Positions 20,150 to 31,160 of a stretch of 64,000 nt of DNA are shown one piece after another. The DNA is taken from contig CP091723.1 in NCBI GenBank assembly GCA_022009775.1, forward strand, positions 1,029,121 to 1,093,120, in the 5' to 3' direction. The translations under genes and the position numbers were made by a program. How positions within the stretch are numbered: position 1 is the first letter of the stretch; each line of letters starts with the position of its first letter. The stretch comes from Christensenella sp. GTDB taxonomy: Bacteria; Bacillota; Clostridia; Christensenellales; CAG-917. The notes beneath the pieces are model-generated. The model searched no databases, had not been told where the DNA came from, and saw only the letters and a list, made by a program, of their open reading frames with translations.

Positions 20150-20225
20150 GGGGATATGGCTCAGTTGGTAGAGCGTCGCGTTCGCAATGCGAAGGTCAGG
20201 GGTTCGAATCCCCTTATCTCCACCA
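20150..20225 (+). tRNA. tRNA-Ala (anticodon CGC), CCA encoded
   Basis: Manual cloverleaf. Acceptor GGGGATA/TATCTCC carries the G3:U70 alanine identity pair. Anticodon arm is TCGCG-TTCGCAA-TGCGA. T-arm is AGGGG-TTCGAAT-CCCCT. Ends ACCA. Confidence 0.93.
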
Positions 20226-20230
20226 CAAAA

Positions 20231-20259
20231 ATATCGTACAAATGTACGATATTTTTTTT
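20231..20259 (+). terminator. Intrinsic terminator after tRNA-Ala
   Basis: Stem ATATCGTAC / GTACGATAT with loop AAAT, followed by T8. Confidence 0.8.
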
Positions 20260-20260
20260 A

Positions 20261-20537
20261 TGTGGGATAGGGGATTCTCCACGATTTCATCGTGGTGTTG
20301 CTTTGCAACATGAACCCCTGCGGGCTGATAACAAACGAAGAGAGACGCAAGCGCGTAGCATTTGCGGACATCGAGTGCAGTCTCATAGCCAACAAATCAG
20401 ACACGAAGTGTCCGCGAAAGGCGCAGTGCAACGCACGATTTGTTGAGTGTAGACGCTCAGAGAAGTGAACAAGTTCACTCTCTTCGCTATTACGGAAGCG
20501 TCCAGGTCGCTTCCTACGAATCCCCTTATCTCCACCA
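20261..20537 (+). repeat. Direct repeat R1: candidate structured RNA ending in an exact 21 nt copy of the tRNA-Ala 3' end
   Basis: The 205 nt core 20312-20516 matches 30907-31111 with 3 mismatches. 20517-20537 (CGAATCCCCTTATCTCCACCA) is identical to tRNA-Ala 20205-20225. The element contains many hairpins and one pseudoknot. The repeat itself is certain; its function as an RNA is a hypothesis. Confidence 0.9.
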
Positions 20538-20540
20538 GTC

Positions 20541-20578
20541 AGAATACAAGTTGAACCCCTCAACTTGTATTCTTTTTT
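20541..20578 (+). terminator. Intrinsic terminator directly after R1
   Basis: 14 bp stem AGAATACAAGTTGA / TCAACTTGTATTCT with loop ACCCC, followed by T6. Confidence 0.85.
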
Positions 20579-20683
20579 ATGCTTTTTGGGAAAATTAAAG
20601 TTTCACGATGCAATAAAAAGGCTCGTTGACAAATATGCCTGTAATTTTGTCGTAACAAGAAATAGTCGTTGAATTTGAGTATA

Positions 20684-20708
20684 ATAAAAGCCCTGACAAT
20701 CGTCAGGA
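20684..20708 (-). terminator. Intrinsic terminator downstream of the AraC-family gene
   Basis: Read on the minus strand: CCTGAC GATT GTCAGG followed by GCTTTTATT. Confidence 0.55.
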
Positions 20709-29088: not shown

Positions 29089-29106
29089 GCAAGGAAGGGA
29101 GATATT

Positions 29107-30700
29107 ATGAAAGAGAAGAAAATCAATACCCCCATTGATAGACCTTTTGGCAATAGAGATAAGATTGGATACATGATGGGCGACTTCGGTTGCAACATGA
29201 GTTTCCAACTTATCAGCAGTTTTTTGATGTTGTTTGTCACCCAAGGTCTTGGACTTACAATGGGACATTGGTCAATCATCGTCATCATTTCAAAGATTTT
29301 TGACGCAATCAACGATCCCATCATCGGCGCGTTGGTTGACGCAAGAAAGCCTGGTAGACGTGGCAAATATATTCCTTGGATTTTCTGTGGCGCCTTTGCA
29401 ATCGCACTTACGACGGTGCTTTTGTTCCTTGACGTCAGAGCACTCTCCTACTGGGGCAGATTTGCATACGTGCTTGTTATGTACTGTGTGTGGTCTGTTG
29501 CATACACCGCTGCAAACGTGCCTTACGGCTCGCTCAACGCAGCCCTCACCGACGATTCCGGTCACAGAGCATCACTTTCATCACTTCGCAGTATTGGCGC
29601 AGGCGTCGCAATGCTTCCTATGATGATCATCGTGCCTAGACTCATTTACGGCGAGGCAGATCCAGTCACAAATATCGAGCCTCTCCTTCCTGAGGTTTTC
29701 GTGTGGGTAGCACTGGCTTGTGGGGTTGCTGCAATCGGCGGATTTATGCTCACTTGCTTCCTTACGAAAGAAAGAAAACAAGTTGAAAAACCCAAAGAAA
29801 AATTCAACTATCTTCAAACGCTCAAAGGCTTTGTCACAAACCGTGCTGCACTCGGTATGTGTCTTGCATCATTCAGCCAACTTGTGTTTGTCATGTCCTA
29901 CGCAACCACTTTGCCTCTCGTGTGTCAACTCTTCTTCGGTGACGCAAAGGCGTCAGGCACGGTCGGCATCGTCATGATGTTGCCTATGATGTTCGTCATC
30001 CCCTTTATGGGCAAACTTACAAGAAAGTTCGGAAAGAAAGAGATTGCAATGTGGCCCAACTTGGTGGCAATCGCCGTGCTTGTGATTATGCTGATCATTC
30101 CTTTCCCCAGAACAAGCGCAGGTATGTGGGCATACGCAGCTTGCCTCGGCGTTGCAATGTTGGCATCAGCTCCCTTGAACCTTGGCACTTGGTCAATGGT
30201 GGCAGACTGTGTTGACGAGCAAGAAGTGAGGACAGCAAAGAAAGACGGCAAAAACCTCTACGCAACCTACCTCACAAAAGAGCAATTCGGCAAGCGTGAC
30301 GAAGCAAGTGTGTACGCAACTTACTCCCTTGCGAGAAAGGCAGCACAAGGGATAGGCTCTGCGCTGGTGGCAGCCCTTGCAGGCTTGGTTGGATTTGACT
30401 CGACAAACGTCCAAGCAACCACTCCTCAAACTTCACAAAACCTGTTGACCCTGTCCATTGTACTTCCTTTGGTTGGTTCAATCCTCATCTTCGTGGCATT
30501 CTTCTGTGTGTACAACCTGAACAAGAAAAAGGTCATCGAGAACACGGAATTCCTCCGCGATAAGAACGCACGTATTGCAATCCAACTTGCAAAGGGAGCA
30601 CAACCAGACGACGGAACGGACGAAGCAGAAGTCATCACTTTTGGCAACGTGATAGAAGAAGTTTCAACTGAAACAGAACCTGCCCCCCGCCCAAGCATAA
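29107..30700 (+). CDS. GPH-family (glycoside-pentoside-hexuronide) cation symporter
   Basis: Multi-TM protein starting DKIGYMMGDFGCNMSFQLISSFLMLFVTQ. The ORF-track ORF (to 30813) reads through a terminator hairpin. A 1 nt correction in the C6 run 30683-30688 gives ...AQA* ending at TAA 30698-30700. Confidence 0.8.
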
Positions 30701-30716
30701 CCAAAAATCAATCAAC

Positions 30717-30748
30717 AAAAAACGGACTGATTTTAGTCCGTTTTTTTG
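30717..30748 (+). terminator. Intrinsic terminator after the GPH transporter
   Basis: Stem AACGGACT / AGTCCGTT with loop GATTTT, followed by T7. Confidence 0.8.
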
Positions 30749-30847
30749 TTGTGCCGATGAATATTAATTTTGATTGTTTTGACAAAACGAATGGTTTATT
30801 TTGTCGGTTTTGACATTTAAAATATTGATTAATCAAACAAGTATTTT

Positions 30848-31134
30848 TGTGGGGGAATAAGTGGATTGTGCGATTTTTCAAAAATCGCACCACGGTTTCA
30901 CCGTGCGAACCCCTTCGGGCTGATAACAAACGAAGAGAGACGCAAGCGCGTAGCATTTGCGGACATCGAGTGCAGTCTCATAGCCAACAAATCAGACACG
31001 AAGTGTCCGCGAAAGGCGCAGTGCAACGCACGATTTGTTGAGCGTAGACGCTCAGAGAAGTGAACAGGTTCACTCTCTTCGCTATTACGGAAGCGTCCAG
31101 GTCGCTTCCTACGAATCCCTTTGTTTCCATCACA
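30848..31134 (+). repeat. Direct repeat R2: second copy of the candidate structured RNA, ending in a degenerate tRNA-Ala 3'-end copy
   Basis: Core 30907-31111 matches R1 with 3 mismatches. The 3' segment CGAATCCCTTTGTTTCCATCA matches the tRNA-Ala core at 17/21 positions, and all four differences are transitions. The 5' part diverges from R1 but keeps a hairpin through a compensatory change. Confidence 0.9.
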
Positions 31135-31136
31135 AA

Positions 31137-31160
31137 AGTCGTGCTTGCACGGCTTTATAT
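31137..31160 (+). terminator. Intrinsic terminator directly after R2
   Basis: Stem GTCGTG / CACGGC (one G.U pair) with loop CTTG, followed by TTTAT. Confidence 0.6.

Follow-up and report, generated by a model that had tools for sequence, protein, structure and literature searches.

What repeats the 3' end of a tRNA gene on both sides of a metabolic island that carries no integrase? The question is raised by a 64,000-nt stretch of a Christensenella sp. genome (contig CP091723.1, positions 1,029,121 to 1,093,120; the whole stretch is called the window here). In it the last 21 nt of a tRNA-Ala(CGC) gene, running from C56 of the T-loop to the CCA end (CGAATCCCCTTATCTCCACCA, called the core), return before and after a hexuronate/glucuronide island. 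A sequence-only reading of the window had divided the locus into two units, E1 (from the tRNA end to the second core) and E2 (from there to just past the third core), and had taken them for two tandem, integrase-less, site-specific insertions. Comparison with related strains and species leads us to a different view, which we consider reasonably probable: the locus holds two copies of a tRNA-linked structured module, designated R, that bracket a foreign island, and the island moves by recombination between copies of R. The tRNA-Ala 3' end would then be repeated because the locus holds two R copies. The features of the locus are the following.

20077..20104, + strand: promoter-like site of the tRNA-Ala gene (TTGCCA-16-TATAAT, extended -10, 11/12 match)
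20150..20225, + strand: tRNA-Ala(CGC), 72.5 bits; its last 21 nt (20205-20225) are the core
20227..20256, + strand: T1, intrinsic-terminator hairpin in the interval between the tRNA and R1 (terminator scan)
20261..20537, + strand: R1, full-length type-A module of 277 nt (fold, covariation, size variants)
20541..20573, + strand: T2, terminator hairpin 3' of R1 (terminator scan)
20580..30847: foreign hexuronate/glucuronide island (Pfam, composition, cross-lineage identity, absence from strains)
30848..31132, + strand: R2, full-length type-B module of 285 nt (fold, anticore/core pairing)
31138..31156, + strand: T4, hairpin 3' of R2, followed by the flotillin promoter
31174-31203: flotillin promoter
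31259-32743: flotillin gene

The exact second copy of the core at 20517-20537, already seen in the sequence-only reading, was confirmed (0.00 matches expected by chance). The third copy, at 31112-31132, has an identity of 17/21. Its four differences are transitions in the window, as had been stated, but the extra T is probably an assembly error, the copy being 20 nt long in the comparison locus L005; in L007 and L029 it has three transitions only. Each of these two copies ends a direct repeat of 226 nt with 97% identity (20312-20537 and 30907-31132). The repeat unit starts still further 5' than had been seen earlier, at ~20261 and ~30848, with the start of R1 36 nt 3' of the tRNA-Ala end; in these 5' parts R1 and R2 differ in sequence but form the same hairpins. 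Both units do start with a terminator hairpin, T1 and T2 respectively, while the terminator scan gave no terminator call for the T4 hairpin (31138-31156). Variants of T1 in other species preserve the stem via G.U pairs on the + strand. T2 is the constant left neighbour of the island, and in L030, which lacks the island, T2 follows a mini form of R.

The comparison loci are metagenome contigs, in which assemblers break or may collapse at R (L017-L019). The host lineage belongs to the uncultured gut Clostridiales, with UMGS1043 as the nearest species representative (flanks 89% identical). R is present at one locus in each of four species representatives (L020-L023). tRNA-Ala(CGC) lies directly upstream of it in L020, L022 and L023; the L021 contig breaks in a serine-recombinase element upstream of R, before any tRNA. 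R was found in 13 metagenome contigs, with tRNA-Ala directly upstream in most; in L031, L033 and L037 it is preceded by foreign DNA or by the end of a recombinase element. A search of viral contigs for the pattern of hairpin 4 plus core gave no match.

Four types of R (A to D) can be distinguished by their 5' parts, and three sizes: mini (126-135 nt), medium (148-151 nt) and full (277-286 nt), the full form having an additional domain of 156 nt at a single insertion point. Loci have 0-3 copies between tRNA and island (L001-L012, L025, L028, L029). L010 has none, the tRNA being followed directly by T2; L002, L004, L008 and L009 have one mini copy and the window one full copy; L001 and L003 have mixed tandems of two or three copies. 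The copy number would change by recombination or slippage between modules and cores. E1 and E2 are indeed separate units, as had been proposed, for each is variable, with junctions at the repeated tRNA 3' end (L010 for one; L012, L029 and L032 for the other), and the related strains show variable presence of units and island instead of one fixed arrangement. An insertion in L028, considered as a further cassette, proved to be a rearrangement.

Is R a remnant of integration, or a structure in its own right? It follows directly on a terminator hairpin and consists of a 5' segment complementary to the core (the anticore), four hairpins, the optional 156-nt domain and the tRNA copy from C56 to CCA. 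In the two copies of the window these parts lie as follows.

20262-20277, + strand: R1 anticore
20279-20295, 20297-20309, 20316-20324 and 20494-20514, + strand: R1 hairpins 1, 2, 3 and 4
20329-20484, + strand: R1 variable domain, absent from mini copies
20517-20537, + strand: R1 core copy
30848-30867, + strand: R2 anticore region
30868-30890 and 30891-30905, + strand: R2 hairpins 1 and 2
30924-31079, + strand: R2 variable domain
31080-31132, + strand: R2 conserved 3' block, including the altered core (31112-31132)

The minimum free energy (MFE) of folding is well below that of shuffled sequence for R1 (z = -5.3) and R2 (z = -5.1). In the predicted closing helix, of 15-19 bp, the 5' end of the module (GUGGGAUAGGGGAUUC in R1) pairs with the 3' tRNA-like end. 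The anticore resembles the 5' acceptor strand of a tRNA followed by a T-stem strand, and for this reason the modelled closing helix looks like a mimic of an acceptor/T-arm minihelix ending in ACCA, with a large insert. In pairing with its own anticore, the altered core of R2, as RNA, equals or surpasses the intact core. MAFFT misaligned the covarying 5' hairpins, and a covariance model was used in its place. In the resulting alignment of 21 mini copies (17 distinct) 95% of the cells were paired, and changes on both sides were present in 14/38 pairs, a number reached in 0/500 shuffles (slid controls: <=4). RNAalifold, applied to the full-length members behind tRNA-Ala and tRNA-Lys (see below), gave 88 pairs with 22 compensatory double changes, some of them inside the 156-nt domain. 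The 5' hairpins have diverged between copies with compensation. The last 53 nt are identical across all aligned mini copies of types A, B and C; the 3' block of type D, from the rumen, has three differences, two of which form a compensatory pair. In L029 a U-to-C change in the anticore matches an A-to-G change in the core, compensatory in form and worth only 0.6 kcal/mol. Since its structure is conserved with compensatory base changes, R is probably a conserved structured module and not the remnant of an attachment (att) site or integrase arm, which leaves the proposed att scars of tandem site-specific integrations without support. A second fold was also predicted: in mini copies (e.g. L003:8079-8204) the MFE structure swaps hairpin 4 (GGAAGCG/CGCUUCC) for a GACGCU...AGCGUC helix, and the module may switch between the two modelled folds.

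Related modules occur behind other tRNA genes. A full-length homologue of R follows tRNA-Lys(CTT) in L030 (17-304, - strand) and can be aligned from end to end. It closes with the 21 nt of the tRNA-Lys 3' end, again from C56 to CCA, to which its anticore is complementary: the Lys anticore forms a duplex of -24.3 kcal/mol with the Lys end vs -6.2 kcal/mol with the Ala end, and the Ala type-A anticore one of -25.0 kcal/mol with the Ala end vs -17.7 kcal/mol with the Lys end. Judged by these alignments and energies, both strands of the closing helix appear to have been re-matched to tRNA-Lys. The same contig contains a 5'-half homologue of R after tRNA-Leu(TAG) (821-1030, + strand) and, unrelated to R, two 220-nt units after tRNA-His (1398-1838, - strand) and a 144-nt unit between tRNA-Gly(TCC) and tRNA-Arg (2021-2165, - strand). 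The latter fills the 168-nt spacer before tRNA-Arg, in which no U-tract terminator was seen by eye. Another unrelated unit, of 158 nt, follows tRNA-Gly(GCC) in L023 (~3825-3982, - strand). The complete modules behind tRNA-Lys, tRNA-His, tRNA-Gly(TCC) and tRNA-Gly(GCC) each end in the 3' end of their own tRNA. Because the tRNA-Lys homologue and the other modules match their own tRNAs, the repeated tRNA end would be an intrinsic, co-evolving part of a family of tRNA-linked modules. Rfam searches of the whole window at gathering score and of L030 and L023 gave tRNAs only, without a match to rtT, and a search of 20100-20700 at E up to 10 gave nothing relevant beyond the tRNA. Sub-threshold matches to tmRNA_permuted and to miRNA families were rejected, as they reflect the long palindrome formed by tRNA end, T1 and anticore.

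How, then, did the island come to lie between two copies of R? It encodes functions for glucuronide and hexuronate use:

20795-21660, minus strand: AraC regulator, split in the window, probably by homopolymer errors
21847-23232: UxaC (Pfam)
~23201-24445: UxuA (Pfam)
24357-25163: short-chain dehydrogenase (SDR; Pfam)
25267-25785: KDPG aldolase (Pfam)
25782-26801: PfkB family carbohydrate kinase (Pfam)
26824-29088: GH2 glycosidase (Pfam)
29107-30813: MFS_2 transporter (Pfam)

The observed/expected CpG ratio of 20538-30847 is 0.87, against 1.60 and 1.47 in the flanks, and the tetranucleotide correlation with the rest of the window is ~0.70 for the island vs ~0.9; the G + C content is the same as that of the flanks. 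The foreign origin proposed from composition was thus supported by calculation. From the by-eye description on which it had rested the CpG poverty stood, but the G/C homopolymers are probably assembly errors. Identity to the window is 88% in the flanks of L001, L003 and L009 but 99.4-99.6% in their island, and the block of high identity starts inside R. By these comparisons the island is foreign and was recently exchanged between lineages.

The island is absent from L012, L029 and L032, in which the tRNA is joined through at least one R and T4 to flotillin without interruption. The empty site that had been predicted, with the tRNA followed directly by AAAGTCGTGC... (T4), is present in no locus; island-free loci keep at least one R. 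In L029 the R copy proximal to flotillin combines a type-A 5' part with an R2-type 3' part and lies beside T4 and flotillin. This chimeric R is the exact product of one crossover between R1 and R2, and equally it is the target for a Campbell-type insertion of a circle consisting of the island and one R. As R1 in the window has the A-type 5' part with the intact core, and R2 the B-type 5' part with the altered core, the layout is the outcome of a single homologous crossover either way. The chimeric junction favours homologous recombination through R, for which an integrase is not needed. The sequence-only reading had offered recombination between the two repeats as an alternative, and this now fits best: the island would enter and leave by homologous, Campbell-type recombination between R copies, and was probably gained and lost in this way without an integrase. 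The base before T2 provides a side observation on the crossover point. It is G instead of A (CCACCG/GTCAG) in L003:8686-8692, L020 ~829-835 (-) and L037:2194-2200, irrespective of whether the left neighbour is a full R, a mini R or the end of a decayed recombinase element; the last core base therefore moves with T2, so any crossover would lie inside or to the left of CCACC. The interval 20575-20615, tried as a degenerate 5' end of R after T2, showed weak similarity only (shuffle p 0.03-0.1).

Over 11 kb the window shows 0 substitutions relative to L005, and 12 one-base homopolymer indels; the two are thus from the same strain. Because these two sequences differ by one-base homopolymer indels only, homopolymer errors are presumed, and the split AraC gene, altered gene lengths, G/C homopolymers and the extra T in the third core are probably all assembly errors. 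Examples within 20572-31120 are found at 21344, 21445, 24176, 24408, 25269, 30683 and 31120, affecting the lengths of UxuA, the aldolase and the MFS transporter. An exact-protein look-up with the flotillin protein of the window returned no record, of which homopolymer errors are the probable cause. Further downstream a BrxC-like AAA gene (36176-37908) appears split; its counterpart in L012 is a 655-aa gene. The stretch from the island or R2 to the phosphoenolpyruvate carboxykinase (PEPCK) gene (31135-33340 in the window; L001-L010 18850-19950) is hypervariable across strains and contains flotillin with small open reading frames (ORFs), a DUF4379 protein, a TIR-like 124-aa ORF, or fragments. 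In L003 a short junction of TCCACCA and a T3 hairpin lies ahead of PEPCK.

That the locus lacks an integrase was borne out. No recombinase domain was present in the scanned ORFs of the window, none was present in the precomputed Pfam lists of same-strain contigs (covering most, not all, of the window), and tblastn with two recombinases of sibling strains gave no match in the window. At the same tRNA in other strains recombinases are present, on 8.7-kb elements that lie exactly at the tRNA-Ala CCA (L011:11231-19950 and L015:10482-19200). These elements encode a 304-aa tyrosine recombinase and a 524-aa large serine recombinase, together with a sigma-like 207-aa protein, a GmrSD type IV restriction enzyme and a Dcm methylase. 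Their terminal sequence is ...CACTTCCCACCA, and only ~8 nt are shared with the tRNA; the joint is at CCA instead of the 21-nt core. T1 and a mini-R directly follow them in L011 and L015, a layout also found in L021 and L037, and related element ends are present in L007, L016, L020, L021 and L037. The reading frame of the serine recombinase crosses the right junction into T1 in L011 and L015. Islands with a large serine recombinase at this CCA form a second, independent layer of variation. The tRNA-Ala CCA is thus also a classical integration hot spot, and a recombinase acting in trans could be possible for the hexuronate island. R cores as targets of the recombinases were considered and dropped; the left end of the decayed element in L020 does not lie at an R core.

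A second integrase-less cassette lies behind a tRNA in the same genome. At 62517-64000 of the window tRNA-Ser(CGA) is followed by a ~140-nt module and then by a BsoBI restriction-modification pair in a stretch of low G + C content, without a recombinase. Homologues of the ~140-nt module form the left ends of the recombinase elements present at tRNA-Ala in L007, L011 and L016. In L038 (9700-12700) a sequence similar to the tRNA-Ser 3' end, ACGCTCCGCCA, closes the BsoBI cassette, and another copy of the 140-nt module comes after it.

The most direct competitor of our reading keeps the integration history that had been suggested: E1 and E2 would be cis-mobilisable elements (CIMEs), left by serial integration at tRNA-Ala, R would be a former phage-type attachment (attP) arm, and an integrase supplied in trans would recombine the cores. 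Exact 21-nt direct repeats starting in the T-loop are what such a history predicts, every unit opens with its own terminator as tRNA-targeting elements do, the presence or absence of units falls precisely at the cores (L010), and the tandem accretion of CIMEs at tRNA genes, as for ICESt1/CIME in Streptococcus thermophilus with its strain-variable, integrase-less units between tRNA 3'-end repeats, is well documented (PMC5704250). The elements with tyrosine and large serine recombinases at tRNA-Ala, followed by T1 and mini-R, also point this way, but their ~8 nt of shared sequence and their joint at CCA do not, and no unit was found with both R and an integrase inside one pair of cores. By Pfam, neither E1 nor E2 retains anything of integration or transfer genes, and no trace of a decayed integrative and conjugative (ICE) or integrative and mobilisable (IME) element was found. 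Compensatory changes in the R hairpins are not expected of integrase arm sites. R is restricted to a single locus per genome, it is found without cargo, and core and anticore are switched together behind tRNA-Lys, with analogous modules inside a tRNA cluster. We therefore regard this explanation of R as unlikely.

If structure is granted, it could still have served another purpose, or none. R might be a recombination site acting as folded single-stranded DNA, as integron attC sites and the attP of CTX phage do, with cassettes consisting of terminator, cargo and R. The structure is conserved where the 5' hairpin sequence is not, one-sided G.U variation is missing from the mini alignment, the two strands fold equally well, and the units resemble cassettes of varied cargo delimited at CCACCA, with the BsoBI cassette behind tRNA-Ser as a similar integrase-less case. 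Yet most R units have no cargo, the last 53 nt hardly vary, in contrast to attC sites and to an integron cassette array, and a dedicated integrase, an attI site and a common promoter were not found; no integrase was found in the window, and the 304-aa tyrosine recombinase of L011 scored 50.5 bits against an integron-integrase cut-off of 265 bits. Stems that tolerate transitions giving G.U on the + strand, loops of the UUCG and GAAA type and the + strand terminators point to RNA instead, and we give the DNA-site explanation very little credence. Slightly less improbable, though still very doubtful, is that the R copies are functionless tandem duplications that include the tRNA 3' end and were spread by unequal crossing-over, the island having landed nearby. 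Copy numbers from 0 to 3 would agree with this, as would the lack of a known function for the tRNA-linked repeats (TLRs) of E. coli (PMC8144298) and the disruptive changes that the flotillin-side copy collects in some strains (L007, L029). Against it stand compensatory changes in all helices, a 3' block that is near-identical across species whose core genes differ by at least 12%, and a closing helix re-matched to tRNA-Lys.

The reading of R as a tRNA-linked structured module through which the island recombines has its own difficulties, and the following points weigh against it. Some R copy numbers could be assembly artefacts. L029 could represent the ancestral state rather than a deletion product, and the right end of the island (30837-30852) is not a clean R boundary in L001, L002, L003 and L009. 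The covariation among mini copies is good but not overwhelming evidence for the fold, the alignment having been fitted to the model and representing few (~five) independent lineages. The reverse complement of R folds at least as stably, and in one lineage hairpin 1 contains a C.A, whose minus-strand equivalent would be G.U. Finally, a search for a promoter between T1 and R gave no result, and R has strong-looking terminators on both sides. A TTGCAA-17-TGATAA match inside full-length R was taken as a chance match, as it is lost in mini and type-B copies.

On which strand, and as which molecule, would R act? Of seven transitions in stems, six give G.U on the + strand (about p = 0.06), and the terminators around R are on the + strand; together these suggest that R acts as a + strand RNA. 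A + strand RNA is tentatively favoured over the minus strand and over a function at the DNA level. Given the flanking terminators and the lack of a promoter of its own, transcription of R would depend on read-through. By analogy with the tRNA-linked repeats of E. coli, transcription of R may start at the tRNA promoter and read through T1 along the + strand, after which tRNA-processing enzymes would release the module, a route shown for those repeats. Co-transcription with the tRNA is indirectly favoured by the + strand terminators, by the missing promoter and by the analogous module that lies in the spacer separating two tRNA genes. The re-matching of the closing helix to the cognate tRNA suggests a release of R by the tRNA-processing machinery.

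Repeats linked to tRNA genes have been known in E. coli since 1978. To our knowledge neither a long closing helix of the R kind, in which a 5' anticore pairs with the copied tRNA end, nor a modular size has been described for them. The E. coli TLRs (rtT/rttR in the tyrT operon; rrA, rrB and rrF behind 5S rRNA) are the closest analogue of R. Their 22 genes are spread over ten loci, each of which has one to five of them; the last 18-19 bp match the 3' end of the preceding tRNA or rRNA exactly, and three TLRs are enclosed by two terminators and arise from read-through (PMC8144298). R likewise lies directly downstream of a tRNA gene in the same orientation (R2 being separated from it by the island), its 3' end copies the upstream tRNA end over 21/21 nt in R1 and 17/21 in R2, and several copies (0-3) may be present per locus. 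Unlike the TLRs, R has no sequence homology to them or to Rfam rtT, occurs in mini, medium and full forms with the optional 156-nt domain, and has copies that bracket a horizontally acquired island. By position and 3' identity R thus appears to be a TLR-like module without homology to the E. coli TLRs.

With islands inserted at tRNA genes by serine or tyrosine recombinases, such as the elements at CCA in L011, L015, L021 and L037, the hexuronate island shares its foreign character and its presence or absence between strains; it differs in having no recombinase and in being flanked by modules of 226-285 nt that are also found in island-free strains. Like the tRNA-like domains of tmRNA and minihelices, the ends of R pair into an acceptor-like helix ending in ACCA, in which types A and B can form a G.U at the position equivalent to G3:U70, type D having A-U there. 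Unlike tmRNA, R has no T-loop and no tag reading frame. ARAGORN found no tmRNA, and the Rfam tmRNA_permuted match reached 26.3 bits (gathering score 47), over the junction of tRNA and T1 only.

A structurally conserved analogue of the TLRs in Firmicutes offers a concrete, testable model for repeats to which no function has been assigned. The locus also indicates that repeated tRNA 3' ends around an island need not be att scars, so that predictors of islands that rely on such repeats can be misled. For the organism, repeat modules can provide an integrase-less island with a route for gain, loss and transfer across species; here the island concerned encodes the use of glucuronides and hexuronates and is variably present in a common uncultured lineage of human-gut Clostridiales. 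It is conceivable, though we put it forward tentatively, that modules of the R type are both an undescribed class of stable RNA with a cap resembling a tRNA minihelix and the scaffold of an integrase-free, integron-like cassette array. If so, each module would re-create the tRNA 3' end as a surrogate target for islands that insert at CCA, and its ~230 nt of portable homology would allow islands to stack behind the tRNA and to be swapped between species while the tRNA remains intact.

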